From Polaromonas sp. (GTDB lineage: Bacteria; Pseudomonadota; Gammaproteobacteria; Burkholderiales; Burkholderiaceae_C), in the NCBI GenBank assembly GCA_043718065.1, contig JAYSWJ010000086.1, forward strand, positions 8,456-72,455: a DNA stretch of 64,000 nt, written 5' to 3'. This document shows positions 16,639-44,722 of this stretch, piece by piece. The notes under the pieces were generated by a model that saw nothing but the letters and a program-made list of their open reading frames with translations, did no database searches and was not told the DNA's origin. The translations under genes were made by a program, and so were the position numbers. The first letter of the stretch is position 1. Every line of letters starts with the position of its first letter.

Positions 16639-16664
16639 AAAAAATACAGTTTCCTGTCAGGAAA
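16639..16664 (-). terminator. Putative terminator of the leftward late operon
   Basis: The palindrome TTTCCTG-T-CAGGAAA (16650-16664) spans the stop codon of the last gene. On the minus strand it is followed by CTGTA + TTTTTT (16639-16644). Confidence 0.4.
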
Positions 16665-16986: not shown

Positions 16987-16993
16987 TTTTAAC

Positions 16994-17509
16994 TCACTTT
17001 GTTAAATAGCTCTCGATGATCAAGAGGATGTTGGTTTTGTCGGCAGGGCTGATGCCTAGGAAGGGGCGGGCGGGGATATCGCCCCATAGATGGGGGAATT
17101 GGGACTTGGTGCCGCCAAACTGCTGCATGGCGGCGTATTCCATCGGGCTGCCCACTGAAACTCCGGCTGCGCCCTTTAGCTGGTAGTTGATGGTGGTGGC
17201 TAGGGCGCGGGATTCGCCCGTCAGGGGCTTTTTACCCGCGGTGCGCGCCGCACCTTTCTTACTTAGGCTGCCGTCTTTTTTGAAATTTCCACCCGTTTGG
17301 CCTAAAAATCGGGCGCCGGTGACGGCGCTGTTAGCAGCCCAAGCTGTGCCATCGGGGCTAGTAGCAGAGCTAAAACGACGCTTAGTGGTGTCTACCAAGT
17401 CTTCTCCGATCTCCAGAAAAGCGGGGCGCATGTTTTTGGCACGGCCAATGATCTCGCTTAAACGATCCTGCACCTGCTTGTCGTTGTATTTGACGGTTAC
17501 TGTACTCAT
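16994..17509 (-). CDS. Virion morphogenesis protein (Mu gpG-like)
   Basis: The profile MSTVTVKYNDKQV...MRPAFLEIGEDLVDTTKRRF...DGTAWA matches the phage virion morphogenesis family. It sits after the F-like gene. An alternative start lies at 17548. Confidence 0.8.
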   Translation of the reverse strand: MSTVTVKYNDKQVQDRLSEIIGRAKNMRPAFLEIGEDLVDTTKRRFSSATSPDGTAWAANSAVTGARFLGQTGGNFKKDGSLSKKGAARTAGKKPLTGESRALATTINYQLKGAAGVSVGSPMEYAAMQQFGGTKSQFPHLWGDIPARPFLGISPADKTNILLIIESYLTK

Positions 17510-17513
17510 TTGG

Positions 17514-19834: not shown

Positions 19835-21222
19835 TACATGAATCCTTGTGCTTCGTAGCCGCGTGGTTGCCCGCTGGAGCGGAACTCTATCGGTGCGCGG
19901 GGGCTGCTGGCGGCTTGCATGGCTAGCGCCAGCGCCCAAAAGTGGTCGGCGTGGCCATCGGGCGTGCTCTCGGCGGTAAATCGGACATTGCCCGTGCTGG
20001 TAACCTGCTTAGTCACGGCGCGCAGGTCGGCGCGAATCTTGGGGTCGTAGGGGATGCGTAGCTTTTTGTCTTCAAAGGCCCCCCGTACCGGGTAGGCCAT
20101 CGCTTCCTTGCTGCGCTGGGTGAAGGTGACGGCTTCTACACGGAATTCGCCAAACTTGTCTTGCGCATCGTCAGCCCAGCCAATGCCTAGGCCAGTGGCA
20201 TCGATGCAAGTGCGGTCGCACTGCTCTATCCACGGCCAAATGATCTTTTCTTGGTCGCTTTTGCGCATGTTTTGCATGCGCTCCACATGGCGGGTGTACA
20301 GCGTGTCGCCCAGCTGTTCAAACACCCAGAGCACGGTTAAATCCTTTTTGCGGCCAATGTCTATGCCTGCGTACAAGGGGCCGTTTTGGCGCTGCTGCCA
20401 GTTGGTGCCGCCCGCATATTCGCAGCCGCCGATCAGGCCGTATTCCAAAAAGGCCACGTCGTCGTCAGCCGGGTTGCACATGTACTCTTGTTGAAAGCTC
20501 TCTTCATCGGCGCAGCCGCTGCGCACGAAGTCAAAGTAGGCCGCCTCGTCCATCGCTTGGCGCTCGTCATCGGCGGGTAGCATCTGTTGCAGTTTGGCTA
20601 AGAAGCCTTGGTCGATAGCGTCTTGCAAAGTGACCCGGTGCAGGCTAATACCTTTGGGGTTTTTATGCTCGCGCACCTCGCGCACCAGTTGGTTAAAAAA
20701 GTTATGGCTACCCCGGTGCGTGCTGATCAGCTCCATGCTGCCGCCCCAGGTAATACCAGGGTAAGCAATCGACCACAGCTTGCGCGGGTCGGGGTGCAAG
20801 GCAAACTCGTCCAAGATGCGGCCGCCACGCTTGCCTGCTTGGGCATCGGGGTTGCTGCTCATGCTGTGGATGCGCTTGCCGCTGTCAAATTGCAGGACGT
20901 AAGCCGTCAAGCGATCTTTGTCGTTAATGACAATCTCGCCTAGGTCTTTGGCCGCTAGATGCATGATGCCTGCCCACATCTTGCAGTCCTCAATGAATAG
21001 CCTGGCCTGCAAATCGTCCCTGCTGCTCACCCACTGGTCAAAGCGTGCGCCCTGGGCGGCGGTGCGCTCGGCGGCGGCGTAGGCGCTGGCCCAGCTCAGG
21101 CCAATCTGGCGCGACTTTTCCATCAGCTTTAAGCGGCTATTGTCGGTAATCCACTTGCTCTGAAACGGCAAGAAAATACCCTCAGAAACCGGGGTTACCT
21201 TGGCGTTGCCCTTGCGCTGCAT
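19834..21222 (-). CDS. Terminase large subunit (Mu gp28-like)
   Basis: 462 aa. It lies between the DUF3486 gene and the portal gene. Acidic nuclease motifs are in the C-terminal half (IDATGLG..., HADHFWALALA). Confidence 0.8.
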   Translation of the reverse strand: MQRKGNAKVTPVSEGIFLPFQSKWITDNSRLKLMEKSRQIGLSWASAYAAAERTAAQGARFDQWVSSRDDLQARLFIEDCKMWAGIMHLAAKDLGEIVINDKDRLTAYVLQFDSGKRIHSMSSNPDAQAGKRGGRILDEFALHPDPRKLWSIAYPGITWGGSMELISTHRGSHNFFNQLVREVREHKNPKGISLHRVTLQDAIDQGFLAKLQQMLPADDERQAMDEAAYFDFVRSGCADEESFQQEYMCNPADDDVAFLEYGLIGGCEYAGGTNWQQRQNGPLYAGIDIGRKKDLTVLWVFEQLGDTLYTRHVERMQNMRKSDQEKIIWPWIEQCDRTCIDATGLGIGWADDAQDKFGEFRVEAVTFTQRSKEAMAYPVRGAFEDKKLRIPYDPKIRADLRAVTKQVTSTGNVRFTAESTPDGHADHFWALALAMQAASSPRAPIEFRSSGQPRGYEAQGFM

Positions 21223-21788
21223 CAGCTAATCCCCAACGCTTCGCGGATCGCCTGCTTCGTGTCCTCGGTCACGCCACCCTTTACGGGCATAGCGCTAAGC
21301 TTGGCGGCTTGCTCTGCCAGTAGCTTTTTACGAGTAGCTTCTTCTACCTCGCCCTGAAACTTTTTGAGGTTGACGCTCGACCGCGTCAGCGTGGCAATGT
21401 TTTTTGCGGCGTTGCTCAGCATACCGATGCGCTCACCTGGCTCCAGGTCTTCATCAGTAGCTTCTTGCAGGTTCAAGATAGCCTCAAATAATTCGGTTTG
21501 TACCAGTGCGGTCAGCGCTTCAGAGCGCGCGTCTTTGTCATCGCCCGCCTGGGCGCTGATCATCTTGGCGGCCTCAGTGCTGGCGCGTATAGCCGACAGT
21601 CGGCGCTCTAGCTTTTGGCCATACCGGCCAATGGCTGATCGGCTGGGTAGCGTGGGGGCTGTCGCTGGAAAGCGCTCTTGCAGGTCGGCGATCAGCTCAT
21701 TAAGTGTGCACGCGCCATTCGCCAGCTGCGCAGTGATGTAACCCTTAACCTCCTCGGGCAGGCGTGCAATAGAGCTTTTGCGGCCCAT
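21222..21788 (-). CDS. Small terminase-like DNA-binding protein (DUF3486, Mu gp27-like)
   Basis: 188 aa with an N-terminal HTH-like segment and a coiled-coil C-terminus. It is immediately upstream of TerL. Confidence 0.7.
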   Translation of the reverse strand: MGRKSSIARLPEEVKGYITAQLANGACTLNELIADLQERFPATAPTLPSRSAIGRYGQKLERRLSAIRASTEAAKMISAQAGDDKDARSEALTALVQTELFEAILNLQEATDEDLEPGERIGMLSNAAKNIATLTRSSVNLKKFQGEVEEATRKKLLAEQAAKLSAMPVKGGVTEDTKQAIREALGIS

Positions 21789-21790
21789 AG

Positions 21791-22111
21791 CTACACCTTG
21801 GGCGGGCGCATGATGCCCGCGTCACAGGTGACTGTGTATTGCACAATGTCAATGCCGTCGCGCGTCAGGTCAACGCTGATTTGGTTCAGTGGATCCACTG
21901 CGATCTTCAGTAGCTCGCGGCTTTCTAGGTAGTCCAGTTCTCGCCGTATCTCTAGCTCGGTGGCATCGGGGTATTCGCCCTGCACAACCTGCAGCAGAAA
22001 ACGCGTAGTTGAATGCACAGGGCGGTTGATTTCAGCCGCTAGCAGTAACACCCAGCGCATAAACTCGCGGCGCGCGCGCTGCGCCTGCAGGCGCATAGTG
22101 TCTTCATTCAT
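21791..22111 (-). CDS. Phage hypothetical protein
   Basis: The ORF is in operon context and codon third-position GC bias is consistent with coding. The start is chosen at the ATG at 22111. Confidence 0.4.
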   Translation of the reverse strand: MNEDTMRLQAQRARREFMRWVLLLAAEINRPVHSTTRFLLQVVQGEYPDATELEIRRELDYLESRELLKIAVDPLNQISVDLTRDGIDIVQYTVTCDAGIMRPPKV

Positions 22112-22451
22112 GGTTCTTTTGGCCTCGTAATAGGATGTTTTCAAAGCGCATGCTCATGGCATCTAGCTTGGCCATGATGGTGGCCACGGCCTGTACATAG
22201 TCCTCGCGCCGCACGTAGTTCAGCGGCAAGTCCGCCTTAAGATTTAAAAACTGCCGCTCTACATCTATCCAGCGGTTAGCCTCTAGCCGCTGCGAGGTCT
22301 CGATCTGATCAAGCCGCTTGGATTGGCTAACAAAGCGGCTGTCGATATGCACTTCGACCTGTTTTAAAAGCAGCTTGCCTGCTGCGAAAACAAAGCCCAA
22401 GAAGGCGATCATAAGTAGCACCGCGTGCCATAGTTCAAGTTGTAATGTCAT
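22104..22451 (-). CDS. Phage membrane protein (single N-terminal TM plus coiled coil; Mu gp25/DUF2730-like)
   Basis: It has the TM segment WHAVLLMIAFLGFVFAAGKLLL and lies between the spanin and packaging genes. Confidence 0.4.
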   Translation of the reverse strand: MTLQLELWHAVLLMIAFLGFVFAAGKLLLKQVEVHIDSRFVSQSKRLDQIETSQRLEANRWIDVERQFLNLKADLPLNYVRREDYVQAVATIMAKLDAMSMRFENILLRGQKNHE

Positions 22452-23113
22452 GGGGCTGTTTTTCGAAAATTAGAAGTGGTCACAAAGTCGATCAAACGTT
22501 GGTGTGCCAGCCGGTTGGCGGCGCAGGTTTTAGCGTTGGCAATGTGGTTGTCCCAGGCATCGTCGACAGTGGCAGTGGTTGCAGCAGCACAGGCGGCAGC
22601 GGTGGGGTTAGTAGCGCTGCAGGCACCGGCGGGCTGGTCTGTACCCGTAAGGGCGCTGTTCCACACCCAGACAGCGCCAGCAGTAAGCACAGGCACACCA
22701 CCAACATCATCGCCAGCGTTGCCCGACCCAAGTTGTTCAGGCGCTGCTGCTGCACGTCCTGGTGCAAGGGCTGGCCCAATAGGTCGCACACCCAAAACAC
22801 TACCAGCGCAAGCCATAGGCCTGCTGGCCACAACCAAAGGGGTATGTTTTCGTACTGCATTAAATTTCTCCGTGAGTTGATTAAACTGTCCTGTCAGCGC
22901 CTGCGCCGAGGCCAGGTAGTCTGCGCTGGCCTTGTGGCCACGGGCTACCTCGCCCTCGTATTGTTTTTGCGCGCCTACCAGCGTGGCGGCTTGCTTGGCC
23001 TGCCACGCCTGCTCGGTATGCTTGCTGCCTTGGCTGTAGCCCAGCGCCAAGGCTGCCAAGATGGCCAGCAGGCCGATCAGCAGCTCACCCGCGATGCTTT
23101 TTATAAAGCTCAT
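22448..23113 (-). CDS. Inner-membrane spanin subunit (Rz-like)
   Basis: It has an N-terminal TM (IAGELLIGLLAILAALALGY) and a coiled-coil periplasmic domain. It follows the endolysin and contains an embedded lipoprotein ORF. Confidence 0.65.
   Translation of the reverse strand: MSFIKSIAGELLIGLLAILAALALGYSQGSKHTEQAWQAKQAATLVGAQKQYEGEVARGHKASADYLASAQALTGQFNQLTEKFNAVRKHTPLVVASRPMACAGSVLGVRPIGPALAPGRAAAAPEQLGSGNAGDDVGGVPVLTAGAVWVWNSALTGTDQPAGACSATNPTAAACAAATTATVDDAWDNHIANAKTCAANRLAHQRLIDFVTTSNFRKTAP
22492..22710 (-). CDS. Outer-membrane spanin lipoprotein (Rz1-like), fully embedded in Rz in another frame
   Basis: The signal plus lipobox is MMLVVCLCLLLALSGC. The mature part is short and proline-rich. 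Confidence 0.65.
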   Translation of the reverse strand: MMLVVCLCLLLALSGCGTAPLRVQTSPPVPAALLTPPLPPVLLQPLPLSTMPGTTTLPTLKPAPPTGWHTNV

Positions 23114-23874
23114 GGCTGCACCACCCCGCCCCAGCTGGCATAGCGCGGCTGCAGTGCACCCAAAATGCGCTGTGGGTAGCCTAAGTTTTCAGCGCAGTGC
23201 AGCTTGGCACGCTGGGCCCAGCCGCAGGCATCATCGGCCTGCTGGCGGGTGGGAAACATACGGTGCGTGCGGCTGGCCACTGCCGCCTCGCGCTTCCAGT
23301 GGCCCAGGCCACCGTTGTAGCTGCGTAGCGCCACCCATAGGCGGTCGTACTCGCTGTAGTGCTGCGGTGCGCGGTCGTACAGCCACTTGTCATAACCCGC
23401 CATGCTGCGCAGCGCCCACACCGGGTTGCTGGGCTGGCACTGGGCTGCGGGCAGCTTTTGCAAGCCGCACCACCAGGTGGCCGTAGCAGGCATAAATTGG
23501 GTTAGCCCGCGTGCACCCACGGGGCTGATGGCGCCAGGGTCCCAGTCGCTTTCCTGGTGCACCTGGGCGGCCATTGCTGCAATGGGTGCGTCTAGCCCCC
23601 ACTGGCTGTGCGCAGCACGCACCAGGTCGGCCCGGTACCGGCTGGCTTGCTGGGGCACATTGGGGCTGATAGCTTGCGCATGCACTGTGCTAGGTGCGCA
23701 CATGGCCAGCAGGCAAGCCGACAGTAGCACCGCTATAGCTACCAGCATGCAGCGTGCAGCGGTACGCAAAGGCTTGCTGTGGGCTGCTTGGTACTGTCGC
23801 AACCGGCTCGCTTCGCGGCTGCGGCAGTAGCCTTGGTACCAGCGCGAAAATGCTACACCGCTCATGCTACGCAC
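23110..23874 (-). CDS. Lytic transglycosylase (SLT domain) endolysin with N-terminal hydrophobic signal/SAR-like segment
   Basis: The catalytic region is QVHQESDWDPGAISPVGARGLTQFMPATA. The N-terminal segment is MLVAIAVLLSACLLAMCA. Confidence 0.8.
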   Translation of the reverse strand: MRSMSGVAFSRWYQGYCRSREASRLRQYQAAHSKPLRTAARCMLVAIAVLLSACLLAMCAPSTVHAQAISPNVPQQASRYRADLVRAAHSQWGLDAPIAAMAAQVHQESDWDPGAISPVGARGLTQFMPATATWWCGLQKLPAAQCQPSNPVWALRSMAGYDKWLYDRAPQHYSEYDRLWVALRSYNGGLGHWKREAAVASRTHRMFPTRQQADDACGWAQRAKLHCAENLGYPQRILGALQPRYASWGGVVQP

Positions 23875-24244
23875 CCAGGCTGACCGCGATCATGGCCGCA
23901 GAGATGATGATCGCACGGCGCAGCATGCAAGCAGCCGCTAGCGATGGCATGGAGCCATCGACCACGGGCGGCGACCACAAGCCATCGCCCACCTCGACAC
24001 CCTTGGGTATATTCAGCGCAGTAGCAGCAATAAAAAAGTGCGGGCGCGCGTAAGGGAACACACTGCGGTCAATCCAGTAGCCCGCTACAGCGGCCAGCGC
24101 CACTAGCGACAGCTTGTACAAGCTCACTGGCAGCTGCTGCGGCGCAATCAAATAGACCAAGATGGCCAATAGCGCAGCGGCCATCAGCCAATCAAACATG
24201 CGCCAAGTCCGTGGTGCTGCGGTGGGGTGGGAAGTTTTGTTCAT
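23867..24244 (-). CDS. Holin-like membrane protein
   Basis: 125 aa from the ATG at 24244 with 2-3 predicted TM segments. It is the first gene of the lysis cassette. The start is supported by the conserved 34-nt spacing to the late dyad. Confidence 0.45.
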   Translation of the reverse strand: MNKTSHPTAAPRTWRMFDWLMAAALLAILVYLIAPQQLPVSLYKLSLVALAAVAGYWIDRSVFPYARPHFFIAATALNIPKGVEVGDGLWSPPVVDGSMPSLAAACMLRRAIIISAAMIAVSLGA

Positions 24245-24278: not shown

Positions 24279-24296
24279 AACTAAAGTGCTTTAGTT
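24279..24296 (-). promoter_or_regulatory. Late-promoter dyad copy 1 (AACTAAAGCACTTTAGTT on the minus strand)
   Basis: It lies exactly 34 nt upstream of the holin-like ATG. The same dyad with the same spacing occurs at 36448 and 41650. Confidence 0.5.
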
Positions 24297-24570
24297 ATTG
24301 ACCCGGGAATTCATCCTCGCAAGGCTTGCCGTCGCTGTCTGCATCCAGCTGCGTAGCCCCAGCGGCCAAGTAGGCTAAGGCTTGGCCTAGGCTGGCCATA
24401 TCTTTGCAGGCCACCGACTTTACGCGTGATGCGTCGACTACAGGCGCGTTCGCGGTTGCCACTGTATTGCCGCAGACTTCGGCGCTGCCATTGCAAGTGC
24501 CCGTGTTACCACCGCCGCCACCGCAGGCAGTAAGGCTGGCGGCTATAACCGATGCAAAAAATGGTTTCAC
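24295..24570 (-). CDS. Lipoprotein with C-terminal Excalibur-like calcium-binding motif
   Basis: A GTG start overlaps the upstream stop (GTGA). The lipobox is VIAASLTAC. The C-terminal DADSDGKPCEDEFPG resembles the Excalibur DxDxDGxxCE motif. Confidence 0.55.
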   Translation of the reverse strand: MKPFFASVIAASLTACGGGGGNTGTCNGSAEVCGNTVATANAPVVDASRVKSVACKDMASLGQALAYLAAGATQLDADSDGKPCEDEFPGQ

Positions 24571-25088
24571 TTGCAGCCCCCCAGCTTCGTGCACTCGGCT
24601 TTTAGGGCGGCTTCATTGGCGACCAGCTCCCGATCCTTTTGGTCGCAGCGCGTAGCTGCCGCTGCCATCTCGCTGGCCATTTGGGCAGAGTTAACTTTGC
24701 CGTAGAGATTTTGCACATATTGCGCCTTGCTGGCCTCTAAGTCTTTTTGCTCTTGCGCACATGATTGGCGATGATCTAGTACCGCGCCCTTTGCGTTGGG
24801 ATAGTAAATATCTTGCAAATCGCGTAATCGCCTGGTGCGTTGACTCTCAGTAATTAACGCTTCCAATCGTTGGGCTTCGGTCTGTGGTTTTGCGCTACTT
24901 GAAGAGGTTGTGGCTGGTGCATTTTGCCCTGCTGCAGGCCGCACTTGAATGGTGCCGCCCTTGGCCTGACAGGGCCCATCTTGGAACGCTACTTTACCAT
25001 CCGCTGCAGTACATTTATTAATTGCCCAGCTCGCCGGTTGTATTGCCAAGAGCAGCGCCAGCGCACTAATTTTTAGAATTGATTTCAT
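24567..25088 (-). CDS. Secreted DUF4124-like protein
   Basis: The signal peptide is MKSILKISALALLLAIQPASWA. It is followed by INKCTAADGKVAFQDGPC (DUF4124-like) and then a coiled coil. The start is 9 nt after the repressor stop. Confidence 0.55.
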   Translation of the reverse strand: MKSILKISALALLLAIQPASWAINKCTAADGKVAFQDGPCQAKGGTIQVRPAAGQNAPATTSSSSAKPQTEAQRLEALITESQRTRRLRDLQDIYYPNAKGAVLDHRQSCAQEQKDLEASKAQYVQNLYGKVNSAQMASEMAAAATRCDQKDRELVANEAALKAECTKLGGCK

Positions 25089-25096
25089 TGTTGCCT

Positions 25097-25903
25097 TTAA
25101 AATTTGCAGCCATGCCACACCACGCGGCCTAGCACTGTGAGCTGATCGGCCTCTTTGGAGGTAAGCGTCTCGGTGCCGTAGCGTTGATTGTCTGAGATCA
25201 CGTCCACCGTGCCATTTATTTTAAAACGCAGGCGTTTGACCAGCAAGCTGCCATGCAGCTGGATAACATAGACACCCTCGGCCCGCTGAGTAGCGATACG
25301 CATGTCCAACAGCAGCAGGTCGGCATCGTTGATGGTTGGCGTCATGCTATCGCCACGCACCTGAATTACGCACACTTGCTCGGGTGCGCAGCCAAGAGAT
25401 TGAGTTAGCCACTGTCGTTTAAAGACCAGGTGATCCACTACAGATTCGTCATGGATTAAAGAGCCACCACCAGCGCTGGCGTGTACGTCGTGCCTCGGAA
25501 CCAAGATAAAAGCTGCCGCTTGATCAATCAATTTTTTAGTTGAATCTGCTGCAGAAAAATAGTTTGACAGCAATGCCTTTGCTTGGGTCTGTTCACGCTT
25601 GCCTGCAAGCCTTTCCTCGGCCACTATGTCCGAGAAATTAAGCCCTGAATTTGCGCTTTTAGCAATGCGTTCTTCTTTGACATTTAAGCGCTGAAGTTGG
25701 TCTGCGGTGATGCCTGTCAGTATGAAATTAATGTCGGCTCCGGCAGATGCTAAGGCAGCTAGGTAATCCGCATCAGGCGAGCGCTGCCCCGACTCGTAGT
25801 TTTGTTGCGAGCGTCCAGAAATTGAACACTTTTCAGCCAGTGCCTCCTGGCTCAACCCCAAGGCTTTTCGCTCGCTTTTTAGCCTTTGCGAGAAATCACG
25901 CAC
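25097..25903 (-). CDS. Prophage repressor: XRE-type HTH plus S24 (LexA/CI-like) peptidase domain
   Basis: The HTH is LKSERKALGLSQEALAEKCSISGRSQQNYESG. The S24 serine motif is VRGDSMTPT, followed by LLVKRL. It has a GTG start and is divergent from the ner-like gene. Confidence 0.85.
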   Translation of the reverse strand: MRDFSQRLKSERKALGLSQEALAEKCSISGRSQQNYESGQRSPDADYLAALASAGADINFILTGITADQLQRLNVKEERIAKSANSGLNFSDIVAEERLAGKREQTQAKALLSNYFSAADSTKKLIDQAAAFILVPRHDVHASAGGGSLIHDESVVDHLVFKRQWLTQSLGCAPEQVCVIQVRGDSMTPTINDADLLLLDMRIATQRAEGVYVIQLHGSLLVKRLRFKINGTVDVISDNQRYGTETLTSKEADQLTVLGRVVWHGCKF

Positions 25904-28461: not shown

Positions 28462-30264
28462 ATGGACAAGACCCTGCCATCAGACCTGGTGCGTGAGCTG
28501 CTTGCGCTGCATGATGCCCATGCGGCCACCGGGCACGGCCTGCGCCAACAGCTGCTTAACGACTTTGCTGCGGCGAAAGGTGTTTCTTTGCATAAGGTGT
28601 ATGGCTGGCTGCGCCAGCACACGGGTTTTAAGCCGCTGCGTAAAAAACGCAGCGACAGCGGCTCTACTATTTTGGCCAAAGACGCGCTGCTTTTTATGGC
28701 GGCAAGTATGAGCGAAAGTGTGCGCAACACTGGTGTGGCCACTAAGCCCATACCTGTAGCGATGAATATCGCGCACACCAACGGCTTCGATGTCAATGTG
28801 TCGGCCAGCACTATAGGCCGACAGTTGCGCCAAGGCAGACTAGATGTGGTGGCTCAAGCCCAAGCCCGCAACCACCTGCGTCAGCGTAGTTTGTACCCCA
28901 ACCATGTGCACCAGATCGACCCCTCGCTTTGCCTGATCTATTACATGGGCGGGCGTCAGCACATGGTGCGTGAACAGGAATTTAACAAAAACAAGCCTGC
29001 CGCTGCTGACAAGATCAAGCTGAAGGTGTGGCGCTACGTGCGCTACGACCATGCCAGCGGCACACTGGATGTACGTTATTACGAAGCGGCGGGTGAGAAC
29101 CAGCACAGTCTGTTTGAGTTTATTTGCCACACGTGGGCAAAGCATGATAAGCGCGTCAGCTATGGAGTGCCCAAAATGCTGCTGTGGGACAAAGGCAGTG
29201 CCAATACGAGCACGGGTATTAAGCGCCTGTTAGACGCGCTGCTCGTCAACCACGCAACCCACGCCACACACCATGCATGGGTTAAGGGTGGTGTCGAGAG
29301 CGGCAACTGGATTGTGGAGCGCCACTTTGAAAGCCGCCTGAAAGACGAGCCAGTGGACAACATAGCGCAGCTTAACGCGAGCGCCGAGAACTGGGTGCGA
29401 GACTATAACGCCAATGTTATGCATCACATCGACAGCCGCATCGTGCGTGATGACGGCAAGCGTAATGTGCGCGATGACTTGTGGAGCTTGATTGCGCATA
29501 CGCCTGAGGTTTTAATCGAGATGCCTGCGCGGGATGTGTGCGCCTATTTCATGCGGGGCAAAGACGACACGCGCCAGGTGCGCAATGGCCATATTAGCTT
29601 TGTGCATCCGCAATCTGGTAAGAGCGAGCTGTACAACCTGCAAGACTATGCGCACGAGTTTGCCAATGGTGAGACCCTGAAGGTCAGCCCTATGCTCTTA
29701 GGTGACTGCGTTTTACGCGTAGAAATAACGCTCAACAACCAGTCGCCCCTGCACGTTGAGGTCAAGCCCGAGCGTGACTTTGATGCCTTTGGCCGCACTA
29801 TGAGTGCGGTGGTGATGGGCGAAGAGCGCCGCACGGCGCCGCATACTGCTGCGCAAGAAGCGGCCAAGCAAATAGCGCTGACAGCCTACGGCTCAACCTC
29901 GCTTGCAGAGGCCGAAGCTAAGCGTACAAAAAACGTTCGGCCATTTGCACATTTCAACGATGGCAAAGGCGTCGTGGCGCACAGTCATCTTGGTGCTGAC
30001 GATCTGCCGTCAAGGCTACTGCCTGCTCCGCAGGCTATTGAGTCAATTGATGCGGATTCGCTGCATGCATCCAAAGTACAGCGCGTACTCAAGGGATTTG
30101 AATTGGCAGCAACGCTAGCAGATATGGGTATTGAAATGAGCCGTGAGCGTAATGCACTGGTTGCACAGTTGCACCCTAATGGGGTGCCAGAGGATGCCTT
30201 GCCTGCTTTGTGCGCCCGCCTGCAGGTACGCGCTGGCCTGCGCATCGTAGGGGGTGATGTATGA
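28462..30264 (+). CDS. Mu-type DDE transposase (MuA-like)
   Basis: About 600 aa. Candidate DDE residues are in HQIDPS, LLWDKGSANTS and VKGGVESGN. There is an N-terminal DNA-binding region. A MuB-like gene follows with an ATGA overlap. Confidence 0.85.
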   Translation: MDKTLPSDLVRELLALHDAHAATGHGLRQQLLNDFAAAKGVSLHKVYGWLRQHTGFKPLRKKRSDSGSTILAKDALLFMAASMSESVRNTGVATKPIPVAMNIAHTNGFDVNVSASTIGRQLRQGRLDVVAQAQARNHLRQRSLYPNHVHQIDPSLCLIYYMGGRQHMVREQEFNKNKPAAADKIKLKVWRYVRYDHASGTLDVRYYEAAGENQHSLFEFICHTWAKHDKRVSYGVPKMLLWDKGSANTSTGIKRLLDALLVNHATHATHHAWVKGGVESGNWIVERHFESRLKDEPVDNIAQLNASAENWVRDYNANVMHHIDSRIVRDDGKRNVRDDLWSLIAHTPEVLIEMPARDVCAYFMRGKDDTRQVRNGHISFVHPQSGKSELYNLQDYAHEFANGETLKVSPMLLGDCVLRVEITLNNQSPLHVEVKPERDFDAFGRTMSAVVMGEERRTAPHTAAQEAAKQIALTAYGSTSLAEAEAKRTKNVRPFAHFNDGKGVVAHSHLGADDLPSRLLPAPQAIESIDADSLHASKVQRVLKGFELAATLADMGIEMSRERNALVAQLHPNGVPEDALPALCARLQVRAGLRIVGGDV

Positions 30265-31469
30265 GCGCCCTGAGCCTTTTACTGACCCAGCTGGGATTGA
30301 CCCAAAGCGACCTGGTCAAAAGCCTGCGCCTGACGCGCAGCACGGTCAGCCGCATGGTGTCTACCGGGCAATGGCCTGCGCGCGGTGGTGCCCAGGTGCG
30401 TGATGAAGTGGTGGCCTATTTGCGCATGCAAGGTGCCATGCTGGTGGCTTTGCGCACCCTGCCGCCCATAACGCCAGCCCCCAATAAGTTGGCCCCAGCA
30501 AGTGTGCAACCTGCTGAGGCCGAATCCCCCGGAGCTCTGCTCTCAAACGTTACCCCAAAGGAAGACCCTATGTTACTGCAAAACGAAGCCCTCACGCCAG
30601 AGGCAAAAGCACATTTTGGGCTGCTGCGCAACCCATTCGTCGATGATATACAAAGCTGCGCCGACGTGTACCAGACGCAGCCCATCGCCAACGTGCGCGC
30701 CGCCCTGCTAGACGCAGCGCTGAACCACGGCTTTATCGGCGTGGTGGGCGAAAGCGGCTCGGGCAAAAGCACGCTGGCCGAAGACCTGGAGGAGCGCGTC
30801 AAAGCCGACAAGCGCGACATCATTATTATTCGCCCCTACGTGCTGGCAATGGAGGCGAACGACAATGCAGGCAAGACGCTGAAAAGCAGCCAAATTGCCG
30901 AGGCCATAGCCCATGCGCTAGACCCGAGACTAAAGGTTAAAAGCAGTGCACAAGCCCGATTTACCCAGGTGCACGATCTGCTCAAGGCCAGCCGCAACAC
31001 CGGCACACGCCACCTGCTTTTGATCGAAGAGGCGCACTGCCTGCCCACCGCTACGCTCAAGCACTTGAAGCGCTTTTTAGAGCTCAAAGACGGCATGCGC
31101 CGCACGCTGGGGGTGGCGCTGATTGCCCAGCCCGAGCTGCTGCGCCTTTTAAACAGCAACAACGGCGAGGTGCGCGAGGTAATGCAGCGCTGCGAGCTGG
31201 TGACCCTGCCGCCGCTGGACGGCGACTTAGAGGGCTACCTGCGCCACAAGCTGCGCAACAGCAGCGCAAGTTTTGATGCCGTGTTTGGCAAAGACGCGAT
31301 AGATGCCATACGCCAGCGCCTGATCTACATGCCCCGCGACGGCAAAGCCAAAGACGCGCAAAGCCAGTGCTACCCCCTGATGGTGAACAACCTGGTATGC
31401 CGCGCCATGAACGCCGCTACCAAGGCAGGCTGGCCCACGGTCGACGCACAAGTCATTGCCAAGTGCTAA
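30261..31469 (+). CDS. MuB-like / ExeA-type AAA+ ATPase transposition protein
   Basis: It has an N-terminal HTH (LTQSDLVKSLRLTRSTVSRM), Walker A (GESGSGKST) and Walker B (LLLIEEAH). Confidence 0.8.
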   Translation: MSALSLLLTQLGLTQSDLVKSLRLTRSTVSRMVSTGQWPARGGAQVRDEVVAYLRMQGAMLVALRTLPPITPAPNKLAPASVQPAEAESPGALLSNVTPKEDPMLLQNEALTPEAKAHFGLLRNPFVDDIQSCADVYQTQPIANVRAALLDAALNHGFIGVVGESGSGKSTLAEDLEERVKADKRDIIIIRPYVLAMEANDNAGKTLKSSQIAEAIAHALDPRLKVKSSAQARFTQVHDLLKASRNTGTRHLLLIEEAHCLPTATLKHLKRFLELKDGMRRTLGVALIAQPELLRLLNSNNGEVREVMQRCELVTLPPLDGDLEGYLRHKLRNSSASFDAVFGKDAIDAIRQRLIYMPRDGKAKDAQSQCYPLMVNNLVCRAMNAATKAGWPTVDAQVIAKC

Positions 31470-34845: not shown

Positions 34846-35322
34846 ATGAACCACATCAAAGCGATCCATACCCTAAAGACCAAACTCAAAATGGCCGACG
34901 GCGACTACCGCGCTTTGCTGCAGGGCCTAACCGGCAAAGACAGCTGCAAAAACATGAACCCGGTCGAGCTGGCCAAGGTGCGGTCGCACTTTGACAACCT
35001 GGCGGTGCGTATGGGGGTTGTTGCTGCCAAGCCTGCCTTTGTGCCTAACCCCAAGTTTACGCGGCAGCGGGCAGTGGGCAAGCGGTCGGACAGCGATGCG
35101 GCTGACGATCGCTGGGCCAAAGCACGCACGCTGTGGACGCAGCTGGCGCAGGCGGGCAAGGTGCAGGTGGATACGGACACTGCGCTGCTGGCTTACGTCA
35201 AGCGCCAAACGCAGCTGGAAGCTTGGCGATTTTTAAACGGCCACCAGATCAACATGGTGGTGGAAAGCTTAAAGCGCTGGGTGGCGCGGCCTGTCACACC
35301 AAGCGAGGTGCAACATGGGTAA
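34846..35322 (+). CDS. gemA: GemA / Mu gp16-like regulatory protein (DUF1018)
   Basis: The segment IKAIHTLKTKLKMADGDYRALLQGLTGKDSCKNMNPVELAKV is the DUF1018 signature. Confidence 0.8.
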   Translation: MNHIKAIHTLKTKLKMADGDYRALLQGLTGKDSCKNMNPVELAKVRSHFDNLAVRMGVVAAKPAFVPNPKFTRQRAVGKRSDSDAADDRWAKARTLWTQLAQAGKVQVDTDTALLAYVKRQTQLEAWRFLNGHQINMVVESLKRWVARPVTPSEVQHG

Positions 35323-35728
35323 TTTTGTCAAACCGGCTGATCTGGCCCCTGTCAACGCCGTGACCGGCCCCGACTTGCCCGAGCTGCTGCGCGAGACTAC
35401 CGAGGTGCTGTACTTACAGCTGGTCGACGAGGAGGAGACCCGGCCCAACGCTGCGCGCTGTACACGCCTGGCCCAGATTGCACTGGCGCAGGTGGTACGC
35501 CTAAGCGAACTGATCGGCGGCACCCAGCCCTACTGGCCCTCAGTCAAGTATTTTGCGCTCACAGCCCGCAACCGCGAGATGTGTGCAGAGTTTCGCGGCG
35601 ACTACACCAAGCTGGCCCGCAAGTACAAACTTAGCGAGATCCAGGTGCGAAACATCATCGACCTGTGGCAAAAAGAAAAGTTCTTAGCACGTCAAAATTC
35701 TTTATTTGCGAATGAGGCAACCCGATGA
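35315..35728 (+). CDS. mor: Mor-family transcriptional activator
   Basis: The C-terminus RNREMCAEFRGDYTKLARKYKLSEIQVRNII is a Mor/C-type HTH. It follows gemA as in Mu. Confidence 0.8.
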   Translation: MGNFVKPADLAPVNAVTGPDLPELLRETTEVLYLQLVDEEETRPNAARCTRLAQIALAQVVRLSELIGGTQPYWPSVKYFALTARNREMCAEFRGDYTKLARKYKLSEIQVRNIIDLWQKEKFLARQNSLFANEATR

Positions 35729-36447: not shown

Positions 36448-36465
36448 AACTAAAACAGTTTAGTT
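36448..36465 (+). promoter_or_regulatory. Late-promoter dyad copy 2 (AACTAAAACAGTTTAGTT)
   Basis: It lies exactly 34 nt upstream of the protease/scaffold ATG at 36500. Confidence 0.5.
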
Positions 36466-36499
36466 ATCACGGCACCGCCATCGGCACGACATTACGTGC

Positions 36500-40000: not shown

Positions 40001-40467
40001 TGGACGCGCAAGACACGCTATTTGCGTTGGAACCCCTGCTGCTAGCGCAGCTAGAGGCCAAGCTGGCTAACCTGACCCCACGCCCCAAGGTGCTGACCGC
40101 AGCAGACCTGGCCGGCGTGAGCGAGAACCAACAATTTACCCCCGCAGTACACCTGGTGTACCAAGGCTACCGCGTGGTCGAAAGCCCACGTAATGACGGC
40201 ACCGCAGCCCGTATAGAACAAGACTGGCTGTGCATTGTGGCCACGCGCAGCCAAAAGGCGATTCGTGCAGGCGATGCAGCCCGTAGTGAGGCTGGGGTGC
40301 TGGCACGCCGTGTGTGCGCCGCCATGATGGGCTTCAAACCCACGCCTGCCTCTAAACCGCTAAAGATTGCCAGCGGCCCCAACGCGGGCTACAGCGCAGG
40401 ATTTCAATACCTGCCCCTGACCTTTACGGCTGAGATTGTTTTAACACCCCTGAAAGAAAACCCATGA
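40000..40467 (+). CDS. Mu gp37-like head-tail joining protein
   Basis: 155 aa, immediately after the DUF1320 gene. The N-terminus has an L..L...L leucine pattern. Confidence 0.55.
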   Translation: MDAQDTLFALEPLLLAQLEAKLANLTPRPKVLTAADLAGVSENQQFTPAVHLVYQGYRVVESPRNDGTAARIEQDWLCIVATRSQKAIRAGDAARSEAGVLARRVCAAMMGFKPTPASKPLKIASGPNAGYSAGFQYLPLTFTAEIVLTPLKENP

Positions 40468-40634
40468 TCCCTAAAAATGACACCCCAGCCAAGCCAGAGC
40501 CTACCCTGAAGTTTCTTGTGGCGAAAGCCTTTTGGCTGGACCAAAAGCACTGCGCCGAAGGCGGCGTGGTGGAGCTGACCACCAGCCAGGCCAATCGCCT
40601 GGGCGATGCTGTAAAGCCGGCTAAAGCCGACTAA
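40464..40634 (+). CDS. Small hypothetical protein (56 aa, below the ORF-track cutoff)
   Basis: I translated it by hand: MIPKNDTPAKPEPTLKFLVAKAFWLDQKHCAEGGVVELTTSQANRLGDAVKPAKAD. It has an ATGA overlap with the upstream gene. Confidence 0.3.
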   Translation: MIPKNDTPAKPEPTLKFLVAKAFWLDQKHCAEGGVVELTTSQANRLGDAVKPAKAD

Positions 40635-40691: not shown

Positions 40692-41441
40692 ATGGCAGAA
40701 ACCTCTTACTACCCCTACCTTGGCAGCGGCAGAATCTATGCACGAGTGGCTGGCACGGCTACTGGCCGCTTTGACCTGGGCAATGCCAGCAAGCTGGAGA
40801 TCAAGGTCAAGGAAGGCAGAAAGCAGCTCAAAGACTACACCAAGCCGGGCGGCGGCAGCTATGCCAGCGTAGCCCGTGTGGACAGCGCGACGCTGGAGAT
40901 GACGCTGCATGATTTGAATAAAACCAATGTGGCCCGCGCCGTGTTTGGCACTGAGTCAGTCGTCACTGGCGCTGCTGTGTTGGACGAGGTGGTGACAGCC
41001 TACAAAGGCGGCATCAGCACCCTGGCACACCCTGGTGCTACGGCCGTAGTGGTCACCAACAGCGCGGGCACTACCACCTACGTGGCCAACGCCGATTACG
41101 AAGTGCGGCCAGGCGGCATTTTAATTCTGGACGCAGGCACTATTGCCGATGCTGCCAGCCTGAAAGTGGACTACAGCTTTGCCACCTATAACAAGGTAGA
41201 GGCACTGACCAGCGCAGCGCAAACACTAGAGCTTTTCTTTGAAGGCCTTAACGAGGCCAACAGCGGCAAGCCCGTGCTGGTGGACGTGTACCGTGCCCAG
41301 CTAAGCCCCACCAAGGCGCTGGCACTGCTGGGTGATGACTTTGCCGATTTAGAGGTGGAGGCCGAGGTGCTGAAGGACCCTACCAAGACGGGCGTGGGCA
41401 TTAGCCAATATTTCCGTGCGCGACTGGCCACGGCGGCCTAA
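40692..41441 (+). CDS. Major tail (tube) protein, siphovirus type
   Basis: 249 aa with an AGGAG RBS. It is the last gene before the tape-measure gene. No sheath gene is present. Confidence 0.55.
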   Translation: MAETSYYPYLGSGRIYARVAGTATGRFDLGNASKLEIKVKEGRKQLKDYTKPGGGSYASVARVDSATLEMTLHDLNKTNVARAVFGTESVVTGAAVLDEVVTAYKGGISTLAHPGATAVVVTNSAGTTTYVANADYEVRPGGILILDAGTIADAASLKVDYSFATYNKVEALTSAAQTLELFFEGLNEANSGKPVLVDVYRAQLSPTKALALLGDDFADLEVEAEVLKDPTKTGVGISQYFRARLATAA

Positions 41442-41453
41442 AGGCAAGCTAGC

Positions 41454-41481
41454 CCACTGCTGCCTACTTGCGCAGCAGTGG
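41454..41481. terminator. 10-bp hairpin between convergent tail-tube gene and antisense small ORF
   Basis: The stem is CCACTGCTGC / GCAGCAGTGG with an 8-nt loop that contains the small ORF's stop codon. There is no U-tract. Confidence 0.4.
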
Positions 41482-41622
41482 CGCTACCACAGCCCATGCC
41501 AGCACGGCAATAGGGCCCAAAAGGCCTACCAGCACCAGCCAGCCCCAGCCCAGGCTGAGGCCAAAGCTGATGCCGCCCAAGGCGATGCACAGGGCTAGTA
41601 AAAAGGGGTTGGTTTTGCGCAT
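41464..41622 (-). CDS. 52-aa two-TM membrane protein encoded antisense between tail tube and tape measure
   Basis: I translated it by hand: MRKTNPFLLALCIALGGISFGLSLGWGWLVLVGLLGPIAVLAWAVVAPLLRK. It shows strong third-position GC bias. A TATAGT -10 ends 6 nt before the ATG. Confidence 0.5.
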   Translation of the reverse strand: MRKTNPFLLALCIALGGISFGLSLGWGWLVLVGLLGPIAVLAWAVVAPLLRK

Positions 41623-41649
41623 AGCCGCACTATACCGCAAGCCCCCAAA

Positions 41650-41667
41650 AATTGAAATTGTTTAGTT
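41650..41667 (+). promoter_or_regulatory. Late-promoter dyad copy 3 (AATTGAAATTGTTTAGTT, imperfect left half)
   Basis: It lies exactly 34 nt upstream of the tape-measure ATG at 41702. It overlaps the -35 region of the divergent small-ORF promoter. Confidence 0.45.
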
Positions 41668-41701
41668 CGCCCCCCGCGCGTGCCCGAGGCACATTAGCGG
41701 C

Positions 41702-44700
41702 ATGGGTAACGAATACAAAGTCCAAGTCGATGTCACGGCAGACACTGCGCAAGCGGCGTCTAACGTGGGCACGCTTAAACGTGGCTTTGATGATGCGGGC
41801 GTGGGCGCGGCCAATTTACAAGGCAAGGCGACAGGGGCAGGCCAGAGCCTCAACCAAGTAGGCCAGGCGGGCGAGACGGCCACCGCAGGCCTTGGCAAGA
41901 CGCGCGCAGGCTTGGTCAGCATCTCTGAGCAGTTGTCCCTCGCCAAGACGCAGTTTGGGGCCTTTATCGCCGCGCAACTGGGTTTATCGACCGTCAAGCA
42001 AGTCGGTCAGATTGCCGACGACTACAAAAACCTAGAGGCCCGCATCAGGCTGGCCACCGGCGCAGGTGCCAACTTCACTACCGGTTTTGAAGGCGTGGTG
42101 GAAATCGCCAAGCGCACCAACTCGAATTTAGAAAACACCGGCAACTTGTTTGCCAAACTCACCGAGACAGGCAAGAGCGCGGGCCTGAGCACACAATCTG
42201 CCATCGCCCAATCGTTGCGCTTGACCGAGACGATCAACCAAGCGGTACAACTGTCGGGTGCCAGCGCGGGCGCGTCCAGCGCCGCCATCACGCAATTGAT
42301 CCAGGGCTTGCAGTCGGGCGTATTACGTGGCGATGAATTTAACTCTGTCATGGAGCAGGCACCGCGCCTGGCCAAAGCGCTGTCTGATGGCCTGGGTGTG
42401 ACCACGGGCGAGCTGCGCAAGATGGCTGAGGCGGGGTCGCTTAGTAGCGAGACGGTGATCAATGCGCTGAAAGGCCAGTCTGACACTTTAAAAAATGAAT
42501 TCGCCACACTGCCCGCTACGGTGGGCCGTGCAGTCGAGAACTTGAGCACAAGCTGGTCTGTGTACATTGGCCAGGCAGACAAAGCCAGCGGGGCCAGCGG
42601 TGCGGCAGCCAGCGCCATCAATGGTCTAGCCAACAACCTGCAAACGGTAGCCGGCTACCTGATAGACGCTGGCCAGGCTGTGGCGGGCTTTACCGCATTG
42701 CGGCTGGCACAAACGTTCTTGGGCATTGGCGCAGCAGCTGCGCAATCAGCCGTAGGTACCGCTGCCAGCACTACGGCAACGGTGACCAATACCATAGCGC
42801 ACACTGCCAATGCCGCTGCCGCGGGGCGTGAAGCGCTGGCGTTTAAAGCGCTGGCCGCAGACGTGGCCACGCAAGCTGCAGCGCTAGGCGGCAACACGGC
42901 CGCAACGGCTGCCAACACGGCGGCCAAAACCGCCAGTGGTGCTGCTGCCGATGTAGCCTCTGCAGGCATAGGCCGCTTTGCTGCTGTGCTGAGCACGCTG
43001 CGCACCTTCACGCTGATCGGCCTGATCACCAACTTTAAAGACATTGGTACGTTTATCGGCGAAGGTATTGCCAAGCTGCAGGGCTACAAAGACAAAACCG
43101 AGGAGTTGGCCCGCGCCGACAAGCTGGCCACAGAGATTGCCAAAGACAACCTGCTGCAGCGCGAGCGCATGGACGGCCTGCTGAAAGCCAATATTGAAAA
43201 GCAGTTTGAGCTGTCAGCGGCTGCGCGCACCAGCCTGGGCGAATTTACCAAACTGACCAAAGAAGGCTCTAGCGCGGCTGAGGCGATTGGCAAAATAGGC
43301 AAAGACTTTGACCTGTCGAACGCGCCTGGCATCAAGAACGCCACGGCTGTACTCGACAAGCTGCTGGCCGATGGCAAGCTGACGGCCAGCGAGTTTCAAA
43401 AGGCATGGGCTGATGCGCTGAAGGGCGCTGACCTGGCGGTGTTTGAAACCCAGGCCCGCGCTGCGCTGTCGGGTACCGCCCGCGAGGCAGAGCGGCTAGC
43501 CCAGGTGATGGAGGCCACCCTGCGCGAAGCCGTGAAACGCACCGGGCTTGACTTTGCGGTCATCAGCGGCGGCATGGGCGCTGCAGCGCGCAGCGCCATC
43601 AACGACACCGAGTCGATTGTCAAGGGCTTGGATAGCCTAAAAAAACAAGGCGTCGACACCGCCCAAGTGTTAACGGCTAGCATTGGCAAAAGCATTGCGA
43701 CCGCAGACAGTGCAAAAGCGATTGAAACGGTCAAGCAGCAGATCGAGAGCCTGCGTAAGACTCTGGGTGACAAGTTGACCGATGGCCTGCTAGACCAAGC
43801 CACTGCCAAGGCCAAAGAACTGACTGCTGCGCTAGACGGTATCAAGCCCGGCATCAACAGCGTGGCTGAGGCCATTAAGACGCTAGGCATCACCAGCGAT
43901 GAATCGCTTAAGAAGACAGCTGCTACCAGCGTAGAGGCGTATGAGACCTTGCGCCAGTCGGGTACCAGCAGCGCGCGCGAGCTGGGTGCTGCGTTTGCCA
44001 GGGCCGCGGACGATGCCATTAAAGCCAACAACGGCATAGCCCCCAGCTGGGTGCAAGCCCAAGCCGGCGCACGCGGCTACGAGCTGGCCGCTGACGATGC
44101 AGGCAAAACGACAGTGCGCGCGATGGGCGCTGCAGGCACCTCCGTAGACGGGCTGCGCACCAAGGTGCAGGCCGCTACGGTAGACTTTGAAAAGCAAGCT
44201 GCAGCACTGGATGTGATCAACAGCAAATACGGCCAAGGAAAAGCCGATCGCGATTTTAAAACTGCTGCTGTTGGCTCGGGCAATGGGTCGGTCACGGGTG
44301 CTAACCGCGACCAACGCCTGGCTGGCCAAAACGCCGTAGACAACAGCCTGATATTTAAGCTGAAAGAAAAATCAGCCAAGGGCACGCTGACCGAGAAAGA
44401 CGCTGACGATCTGCGCAACGTGATTGCCGCGCTAGACCAAAACGAGCAGGTGTTTCGCGACCTAGACCGCTACAACCCAGCCGGCATATCTACCGAGGGC
44501 ACCCGCTCACGCAATGAAAACCGCGTCACGCGCCGACTTTTTTCTGACAGGTTAAACAGTTTTGACGGGGGCGGCGGGGCTGAGTTTGCCAAGGAAGCAC
44601 CTAGCCGCGTCGTCAACATCAATCTGCGCGCGCCCGATGGCAGCTTGCAAACCGTGCAGACCAATGACGCAGGCGCAGCAGCGCTGATTAAAACCCTGCA

Positions 44701-44722
44701 AAACGCAAAGCTGGCCGCATGA
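41702..44722 (+). CDS. Tail tape measure protein
   Basis: 1006 aa, Ala-rich and helical, with the tape-measure motif VLRGDEFNSVMEQAPRLAKALSDGLGVTTGELRKMAEAG. Confidence 0.85.
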   Translation: MGNEYKVQVDVTADTAQAASNVGTLKRGFDDAGVGAANLQGKATGAGQSLNQVGQAGETATAGLGKTRAGLVSISEQLSLAKTQFGAFIAAQLGLSTVKQVGQIADDYKNLEARIRLATGAGANFTTGFEGVVEIAKRTNSNLENTGNLFAKLTETGKSAGLSTQSAIAQSLRLTETINQAVQLSGASAGASSAAITQLIQGLQSGVLRGDEFNSVMEQAPRLAKALSDGLGVTTGELRKMAEAGSLSSETVINALKGQSDTLKNEFATLPATVGRAVENLSTSWSVYIGQADKASGASGAAASAINGLANNLQTVAGYLIDAGQAVAGFTALRLAQTFLGIGAAAAQSAVGTAASTTATVTNTIAHTANAAAAGREALAFKALAADVATQAAALGGNTAATAANTAAKTASGAAADVASAGIGRFAAVLSTLRTFTLIGLITNFKDIGTFIGEGIAKLQGYKDKTEELARADKLATEIAKDNLLQRERMDGLLKANIEKQFELSAAARTSLGEFTKLTKEGSSAAEAIGKIGKDFDLSNAPGIKNATAVLDKLLADGKLTASEFQKAWADALKGADLAVFETQARAALSGTAREAERLAQVMEATLREAVKRTGLDFAVISGGMGAAARSAINDTESIVKGLDSLKKQGVDTAQVLTASIGKSIATADSAKAIETVKQQIESLRKTLGDKLTDGLLDQATAKAKELTAALDGIKPGINSVAEAIKTLGITSDESLKKTAATSVEAYETLRQSGTSSARELGAAFARAADDAIKANNGIAPSWVQAQAGARGYELAADDAGKTTVRAMGAAGTSVDGLRTKVQAATVDFEKQAAALDVINSKYGQGKADRDFKTAAVGSGNGSVTGANRDQRLAGQNAVDNSLIFKLKEKSAKGTLTEKDADDLRNVIAALDQNEQVFRDLDRYNPAGISTEGTRSRNENRVTRRLFSDRLNSFDGGGGAEFAKEAPSRVVNINLRAPDGSLQTVQTNDAGAAALIKTLQNAKLAA

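Follow-up and report, generated by a model that had tools for sequence, protein, structure and literature searches.

An apparently leaderless antisense gene for a predicted two-helix membrane protein between the tail tube and tape measure genes of a Mu-like Polaromonas prophage, a candidate superinfection-exclusion moron

The window analysed here, a stretch of 64,000 nucleotides from Polaromonas sp. (contig JAYSWJ010000086.1, positions 8,456 to 72,455 of the forward strand), carries, as read from its sequence, a temperate Mu-like siphovirus prophage. Its late genes include a major tail (tube) protein gene and a tape measure protein (TMP) gene on the plus strand, and the gap between the two holds a 52-amino acid (aa) open reading frame (ORF) on the minus strand, the small ORF that is the subject of this work. 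A first-pass annotation had proposed that this ORF encodes a membrane-protein moron that stands in for the tail assembly chaperones and whose promoter interlocks with the late promoter of the TMP gene. The features of the junction are as follows.

40692-41441, plus strand: major tail (tube) protein gene, convergent with the small ORF (phrog_807, E = 5.9e-68; PF27730 in relatives)
41454-41481: GC-rich hairpin of 10 bp that extends over the final codons and stop of the small ORF (-33.8 kcal/mol, z = -3.6)
41464-41622, minus strand: coding sequence of the small protein, 52 aa, a predicted two-helix membrane protein (family F1, motif GISFGLSLGWGWL)
41629-41634, minus strand: -10 hexamer TATAGT, 6 nt (GCGGCT) before the ATG, read from the sequence
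41652-41657, minus strand: candidate -35 element TTTCAA, a 3/6 match to TTGACA with a 17-nt spacer to the -10 hexamer, inside the left dyad half
41650-41667: Mor/C-type dyad copy 3, AATTGAA-ATTG-TTTAGTT, with 2 mismatches relative to the perfect copies
41690-41695, plus strand: -10-like hexamer CACATT of the TMP gene, 6 nt before the ATG at 41702
41702-44722, plus strand: TMP gene, divergent from the small ORF (PF20155 TMP_3, E = 3e-56, and phrog_12706)

The coordinates first given for the small ORF all hold on the sequence: it opens with an ATG at 41622, closes with the stop codon TAG at 41466-41464 and translates as MRKTNPFLLALCIALGGISFGLSLGWGWLVLVGLLGPIAVLAWAVVAPLLRK. In a codon alignment of nine diverged sequences, its frame has a ratio of nonsynonymous to synonymous substitution (dN/dS) of 0.34 and 0 stops, the plus-strand shadow frame has a dN/dS of 0.53 and 3 stops, and every other frame has a dN/dS of at least 0.83. 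As judged from sequence comparison, the small ORF is under purifying selection and the minus strand is the coding strand. The statement that the gap contains no plus-strand ORF did not survive inspection, because mechanical ORFs are present at 41468-41665 (65 aa, TTG start) and 41416-41598 (60 aa, GTG start); the 65-aa ORF was rejected as coding, being a shadow frame that is interrupted by stops in 3 of the 9 relatives and that has the dN/dS of 0.53 given above. An N-terminal extension of the small ORF itself to a TTG at 41640, which would give 58 aa, was rejected too, as it is conserved only in a sub-group and coincides with the -10 element. The bias in GC content at third codon positions (GC3) that had been remarked on is real (0.75) but ordinary for this phage, whose genes range from 0.64 to 0.75, and provides no evidence for coding; nor can GC3 separate the two strands, because the 65-aa shadow frame shares its third codon positions with the small ORF. 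The GC contents of the three codon positions (0.62/0.48/0.75) likewise fall inside the range of phage genes.

The claim of two membrane helices is upheld by structure prediction and by a hydrophobicity beyond chance. AlphaFold2, run on the family alignment, returns a helical hairpin with helices at residues 6-24 and 27-51 and a break only at G25-W26 (predicted local distance difference test score, 76), and the invariant residues of the family are those of a glycine zipper (G17-x3-G21-x3-G25) and a GWGW turn. When the gap sequence is shuffled, an ATG-initiated ORF of at least 49 aa arises in 20% of shuffles, and a hydrophobicity equal to that of the small ORF in 1 of 5000.

A search of 5.8 billion proteins returned 7 homologs of 50-60 aa at 55-90% identity, and a profile search of 1.8 billion representatives added 10 more. 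Conservation of the reading frame in related prophages had been named as a check on the first-pass proposal, and these 17 homologs, with their shared antisense slot and a frame free of stops, come down on its side. Every homolog found in a tail module lies antisense between the tube and TMP genes, and this slot next to a PF27730 tube gene is kept in loci L003, L004, L007-L017, L021, L024, and L025; L003 and L004 were found through the tube gene and hence independently of the small ORF. The small protein matches no Pfam (E <= 10), PHROG or PADLOC family, the Pmp3/YqaE proteolipids (PF01679; ~52 aa, two membrane helices) included, which gave no match at E <= 10. Its family does not occur in GenBank phages (tblastn) or in IMG/VR, and no Rfam family was found at 41300-41800. 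The family is thus undescribed, although as a kind, a small prophage membrane-protein gene that forms an independent unit beside the TMP gene is already known. What appears to set the present gene apart from the known cases is that it is antisense and apparently leaderless, and that it occupies a variable slot in a clade that has no chaperone genes.

In Suso, F10, JBD93, and an Acinetobacter prophage, which hold distant relatives of the tube protein, the slot between the tube and TMP genes is taken up by chaperone genes on the same strand, and the chaperones of Suso, F10, and JBD93 bear out the view that the small ORF sits antisense just where chaperones would be expected. Among the scanned ORFs of the prophage, however, Pfam and/or PHROGs detected no chaperone, and tblastn with four known or probable chaperones (from Suso, F10, JBD93, and the Acinetobacter prophage) reached an E of 0.16 at best. 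A -1 frameshift that would carry the tube gene into the gap was rejected, as that frame meets stops at the tube stop codon and beyond it, and a same-strand G/GT pair with a -1 frameshift is absent from the gap, whose plus-strand frames have stops in the window and in relatives. Two ORFs of 133 and 115 aa that follow the TMP gene were also rejected as a G/GT pair; they overlap in the +1 frame here and are separate genes in L007. The N-terminus of the TMP is not longer than that of the Suso TMP. The hunt for hidden chaperone frames that the first-pass annotation had recommended, by tblastn, family scans, and the -1 frame of the tube gene, therefore came back empty. With the G/GT chaperones the small gene shares genomic position only: it lies on the opposite strand, encodes a membrane hairpin as opposed to a soluble acidic helical protein, has neither a slippery site nor a -1 frame, and is absent from most relatives that lack chaperones.

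Variation at the slot was gauged from 27 IMG/VR loci that were sampled through the tube protein and so form an unbiased sample, although some are near-identical copies and the counts accordingly overstate independence. Six of the 27, with tube identities of at most 49%, have chaperone-like plus-strand ORFs, judged as such from their placement and size and from an N-terminal motif that, by eye, they have in common. The remaining 21 have no chaperone genes; in 15 of them the tube and TMP genes are 16-119 nt apart with no small ORF between them, and the other six have gaps of 198-322 nt, each with an antisense hydrophobic ORF of 49-69 aa (grand average of hydropathy, 1.3-1.7). Sampled gaps of 198 nt or more occur solely where an antisense hydrophobic ORF fills them. 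The ORFs of these six loci fall into four sequence families, none of them that of the window, such that at least five families use the slot overall. The loci of the chaperone-less clade are L028-L044, L046, L048, L049, and L053 of IMG/VR, together with the window (41442-41701), and the shortest distance from tube stop to TMP start is 16 nt (L038-L042).

Because all 21 sampled relatives of the clade lack chaperones whether or not they have a small ORF, the lack of chaperones is a trait of the clade that is independent of the ORF, and the notion that the small gene replaced the chaperones has to be given up. Its moron-like behavior fared better, with the slot empty in 15 of the 21 relatives and filled by other small antisense ORFs in 6, and on this comparison the tube/TMP slot is a variable cargo site. 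The other slot families are found at L028 3265-3429 and L029 2519-2668 (both minus strand), in the gaps of L036 and L037, and at L005 1352-1537, which equals L046 2062-2247 (both minus strand). A TAnnnT hexamer lies 6-7 nt before the ATG in the L028/L029 and L005 families, and the antisense start codon adjoins or overlaps that of the TMP gene in L036 and L037. In L029 and L030 the cassette lies between the late dyad, with its remnant leaderless ATG, and the true TMP start, whereas in the window it lies between the hairpin and the dyad, a difference in position that reveals independent insertions or rearrangements. At about 2420-2690 of L029 (and also in L030) the remnant ATG reads ATGGCTAC..., and an 81-aa plus-strand ORF there is the shadow of the antisense gene.

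These observations bear on two alternatives. One is that the small ORF arose by chance, antisense within a GC-rich spacer that functions in RNA structure or termination. The ORF is short and without a family match, and ORFs of its length are common in shuffled sequence, as noted above. Yet it shows conservation at the protein level with synonymous variation and no stops across the 9 diverged sequences, it has 17 homologs, some of them outside phages, its hydrophobicity was equaled in only 1 of 5000 shuffles, and gaps of 198 nt or more exist solely where such an ORF fills them, so that this explanation is effectively refuted. The other alternative is a late function of the phage itself, either as a chaperone substitute that handles the hydrophobic TMP at the membrane or as a factor that times lysis. 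The ORF does occupy the chaperone slot of a clade with no recognizable chaperone, its start abuts the TMP start in L021, L024, L036, and L037, and a symmetric dyad could in principle act in both directions. Nonetheless, an ORF that is missing from 15 of 21 chaperone-less relatives, where the gap shrinks to as little as 16 nt, cannot be essential for tail assembly. The antisense orientation, a dyad that is variably spaced or absent, a complete lysis cassette elsewhere in the prophage, and homologs outside phages also speak against a late function, which we regard as quite improbable.

The expression signals of the small gene point to a unit of its own. As first proposed, TATAGT lies at 41634-41629, exactly 6 nt before the ATG, and no Shine-Dalgarno sequence precedes the ATG; in relatives, too, the spacing between -10 hexamer and ATG leaves no room for one. 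Because the -10 hexamer is 6 nt from the ATG, transcription is predicted to start at the A of the start codon, yielding a leaderless mRNA. An invariant ATG with a hexamer that has A as its second and T as its sixth base, located 6-8 nt upstream, is found in 12 of 12 family loci, as well as in an Ideonella analogue, and the leaderless geometry that the first-pass annotation had likened to that of the late genes is therefore conserved. Seven variants of the hexamer were seen (TATAGT, TATCAT, TAATAT, TACATT, TAAAGT, CATGAT, and TATACT), and the retention of the same key positions at the same distance among seven different hexamers speaks for selection of a -10 element that sets the transcription start at the ATG. 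No conservation of the -35 element was found in relatives.

At the other end of the gene, the hairpin at 41454-41481 exists as described but overlaps the end of the ORF, rather than separating the ORF from the tube gene as had been stated. It has a weak U-tract on the minus strand and none on the plus strand, and is probably the terminator of the small gene. A scan for the sigma-70 consensus flagged neither the small-gene promoter nor the hairpin. In four relatives (L003, L004, L012, and L014), clear bidirectional intrinsic terminators lie behind the ORF and are common to it and the convergent tube gene. A terminator of its own, as expected of a moron, is accordingly present in those four, with the hairpin of the window significant but poor in its U-tract.

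Beyond the tail junction, the features of the prophage that bear on its regulation and on the rival explanations are listed below.

22448-24244, minus strand: lysis cassette (PF13272 holin, SLT endolysin, Rz-like spanin)
24279-24296 and 36448-36465: perfect dyads AACTAAA-N4-TTTAGTT
25097-25903, minus strand: S24 repressor
30261-31469: MuB-like ATPase
34846-35322: GemA
35315-35728, plus strand: Mor-family activator (PF08765 Mor, E = 1e-13), the probable binder of the late dyads

The late genes form two divergent arms that flank the immunity and early region, one at 16657-24244 on the minus strand and the other at 36500-56546 on the plus strand. The plus-strand arm runs in the order protease (36500), capsid, Gp36, tail terminator and, further on, tube, TMP, and tail-tip genes, and the minus-strand arm holds, at about 17514-24244, holin, SLT endolysin, spanin, gp27, terminase, portal, and MuF. 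The minus arm sits to the left of the repressor, and the arm with protease, capsid, and tail genes follows Mor; in relatives as well the protease comes directly after Mor. Since a holin, an endolysin, and a spanin are encoded elsewhere in the prophage, the small ORF was rejected as a lysis gene, and it has no match to a Pfam holin at E <= 10 that would suggest a class II holin or pinholin. Two small proteins with Excalibur and DUF4124 domains, encoded at 24295-24594 and 24567-25118 on the minus strand, adjoin the S24 repressor on the same strand and may be further cargo expressed during lysogeny. Directly 5' of the tube gene lies a conserved 56-aa ORF (40464-40634, plus strand) that recurs at 56-63 aa in L003, L004, L007, and L011 and that matches no family; gp009 of phage F10 (64 aa) has a similar size and the same position.

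Each of the three dyads has its edge exactly 34 nt from an ATG, those of holin (24244, minus strand), protease (36500), and TMP (41702), and a -10-like hexamer precedes each of the three ATGs by 6 nt. At the TMP gene the 34-nt distance is fixed in nine loci (the window, L003, L004, L007, L011, L012, L014, L016, and L017), and the -10 position reads CACAGT, CACATT or GATAGT in 9 relatives; the same geometry is found at 36488-36493 before the protease ATG. In phage Mu, the Mor site of Pm is centered at -43.5 relative to the transcription start (PMC4390567), and Mu late promoters have a -10 but no -35 element (PMC2582627). The TMP promoter is, by these features, of the Mu Mor/C type, with a dyad at -43.5, a recognizable -10, and no -35 element, and it overlaps the region upstream of the small gene. 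It differs from the Mu promoters in that -43.5 refers here to the A of the start codon, implying that the late mRNAs are leaderless, and in that a single Mor homolog was found. Because the 34-nt spacing places the dyad center at the same distance from the ATG as that of the Mu Mor site from the transcription start, this group of phages appears to have leaderless late operons.

As for the interlock of this promoter with that of the small gene, the two start codons are divergent and 80 bp apart, and dyad copy 3 is centered at -43.5 from the TMP ATG and at -36.5 from the small-ORF ATG. Positions -28 to -45 of the small-gene promoter are covered by the dyad, such that in the window a bound activator should occlude that promoter. 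The overlap of dyad and -35 element that underlay the proposed interlock is thus real in the window, but it is not conserved: the small-ORF ATG is 27, 30, 31, 32, 39, 41, 52, 56, or 57 nt from the dyad in nine loci, and L021, L024, and L005 have no dyad at all, with only 11-33 nt between the two start codons. With the spacer variable or the dyad absent, the overlap is unlikely to be selected logic. Convergent late transcription may be the more general switch that turns the small gene off during lytic growth.

Homologs of the small protein outside tail modules are P0013 (L022 5001-5162 and L023 474-635), P0015 (L026 744-995), and P0019 (L019 2992-3144, and L020). Each of the three is in a bacterial chromosomal island, shortly downstream of a gene for an MmeI-like type IIG restriction-modification enzyme (PADLOC E = 1e-251; MmeI_C), and P0013 has AbiLi/AbiLii directly behind it and toxin-antitoxin genes of the PIN and TacAT types close by. 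L022 and L026 represent one hotspot with different cargo, and the restriction gene of L019 is 32% identical to that of L022. PADLOC models matched the neighbors only (type IIG restriction-modification, AbiLi, and AbiLii), and neither the window protein nor P0013. An association of the family with defense is suggestive, resting as it does on guilt by association at two to three loci.

The toxin-antitoxin genes near the homologs in L019 and L022 raise the possibility that the small protein is a hydrophobic type I or abortive-infection toxin whose translation or mRNA stability is controlled by antisense late read-through from the tube gene. A type I toxin would match it in size and hydrophobicity, the glycine zipper hints at oligomeric pores, and in the window, where the hairpin has no plus-strand U-tract, late read-through would cover the whole gene. 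In a lysogen, however, antisense late RNA would be missing and the toxin left unchecked, no separate antisense promoter is evident, and the strong bidirectional terminator of four relatives blocks read-through. Type I toxin mRNAs usually have long structured leaders, which the apparently leaderless mRNA of the small gene does not resemble. On balance a toxin is unlikely.

The reading that we prefer, and hold with moderate confidence, is that the small gene is of the moron type and encodes a probably lysogeny-expressed inner-membrane protein that acts against incoming phages by superinfection exclusion. Under this model, we infer the timing of expression, membrane insertion, topology, anti-phage activity, and target as follows. 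TATAGT, 6 nt before the ATG, would direct transcription to start at the A of the ATG, and the leaderless mRNA of ~160 nt would end at the hairpin over the stop codon. The product would be a 52-residue helical hairpin in the inner membrane; basic residues at both ends (MRK... and ...LRK) suggest that both termini are cytoplasmic, and the glycine zipper and GWGW turn would be found at the outer membrane face. The protein would be produced by the repressed prophage and would block incoming phages at the DNA-entry step, as for HK97 gp15. During lytic growth it would be silenced by convergent late transcription and, in the window, also by activator on the dyad over the -35 element.

HK97 gp15 is a superinfection-exclusion moron (Juhala et al. 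2000; Cumby et al. 2012) whose 62-aa product sits in the inner membrane. Its gene lies between those of the chaperones and the TMP, has a terminator of its own, and is expressed from the prophage, and the protein blocks DNA entry in a manner dependent on the incoming phage's tail (reviewed in PMC3594210). The resemblance is one of a small protein of inner-membrane type (predicted, in the window) encoded at the same junction, and gp15 is best seen as a positional analogue: an hhalign comparison of gp15 with the small-protein family alignment gave a probability of 0.3% for the gp15/YebO homology. Whereas gp15 has one N-terminal membrane helix and a soluble tail, the window protein is predicted to be a bare two-helix hairpin, and whereas gp15 is encoded on the tail-gene strand after intact chaperones, the window gene is antisense, apparently leaderless, and part of a clade without chaperones. 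A precedent for antisense orientation is lambda bor, a moron in the late region that has its own promoter and can be expressed in the lysogen without the late genes. Like bor, the small gene is an accessory gene transcribed against the late operon; unlike it, bor encodes a lipoprotein, confers serum resistance, and is not at the tube/TMP junction. T4 Imm and Pf PfsE are other membrane-embedded phage products, of the kind that arrest incoming genomes or put receptors out of action, and neither they nor SieA are known as antisense leaderless cassettes between tube and TMP genes. SieA of P22 is a further prophage exclusion protein embedded in the membrane (PMC10883804). SieA, Imm, and PfsE are all unrelated to the window protein in sequence and size.

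Anti-phage exclusion is favored because of the homologs in defense islands, the diversity of cargo at the slot, and the HK97 precedent. A membrane defense protein that engages the TMP during injection has been documented in SNIPE (PMC13190303), but the small protein of L016 is 69% identical to that of the window and the adjoining TMP just 38% identical, which argues against a strict matching of small protein to neighboring TMP. This is one of several points that weigh against the exclusion moron proposed here. The small gene is not foreign by composition, its GC content of 61.6% being close to the 58-60% of its neighbors, although a deviant composition would be expected of a moron. Within its own sub-clade it has been co-inherited with the tail genes, its identity tracking that of tube and TMP, unlike a freshly acquired moron. 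The -35 element is weak and unconserved and the consensus scan called no promoter, the link to defense islands comes from three loci of which two (L022 and L026) are one hotspot, and the protein has no counterpart among PADLOC, Pfam or PHROG families.

The structural evidence for an exclusion protein (an independent unit, a membrane hairpin, a variable slot) would serve equally for a membrane protein of lysogenic conversion that acts on host physiology, whether in stress, in modulation of the envelope or transport, or in inhibition of a receptor or pilus, and not on DNA entry. Small envelope proteins of otherwise obscure role are common in prophages (PMC3594210), which counts in its favor, but the non-phage homologs lie near type IIG restriction-modification, AbiL, and toxin-antitoxin genes and not in metabolic or envelope operons. 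A host-physiology protein is, in our judgment, the least improbable of the rivals, if clearly less probable than exclusion; it is followed in falling likelihood by the toxin, the late morphogenetic or lysis role, and the chance ORF.

A broader reading joins these strands and is put forward only tentatively, as it is doubtful that all of its parts hold together. The tube/TMP junction of a chaperone-less clade of Mu-like siphoviruses would be a hotspot for largely leaderless antisense mini-genes, which encode two-to-three-helix membrane proteins of at least five families and form a new injection-blocking class. The window family would be shared with chromosomal defense hotspots of the MmeI-like/AbiL kind, and the clade would assemble its tails without a G/GT-type chaperone and express leaderless late mRNAs from Mor sites at -43.5 to the start codon.

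If the proposed function is true, an undescribed family of 50-residue membrane hairpins joins the prophage-encoded exclusion and defense factors, and the antisense strand between tube and TMP genes is an easily scanned slot that collects such genes, which gene callers with length cut-offs miss. For phage biologists, the locus presents a siphovirus clade that has no recognizable tail assembly chaperone genes and whose late operons are apparently leaderless, and a small protein that also occurs in bacterial defense hotspots, next to genes for type IIG restriction and AbiL.

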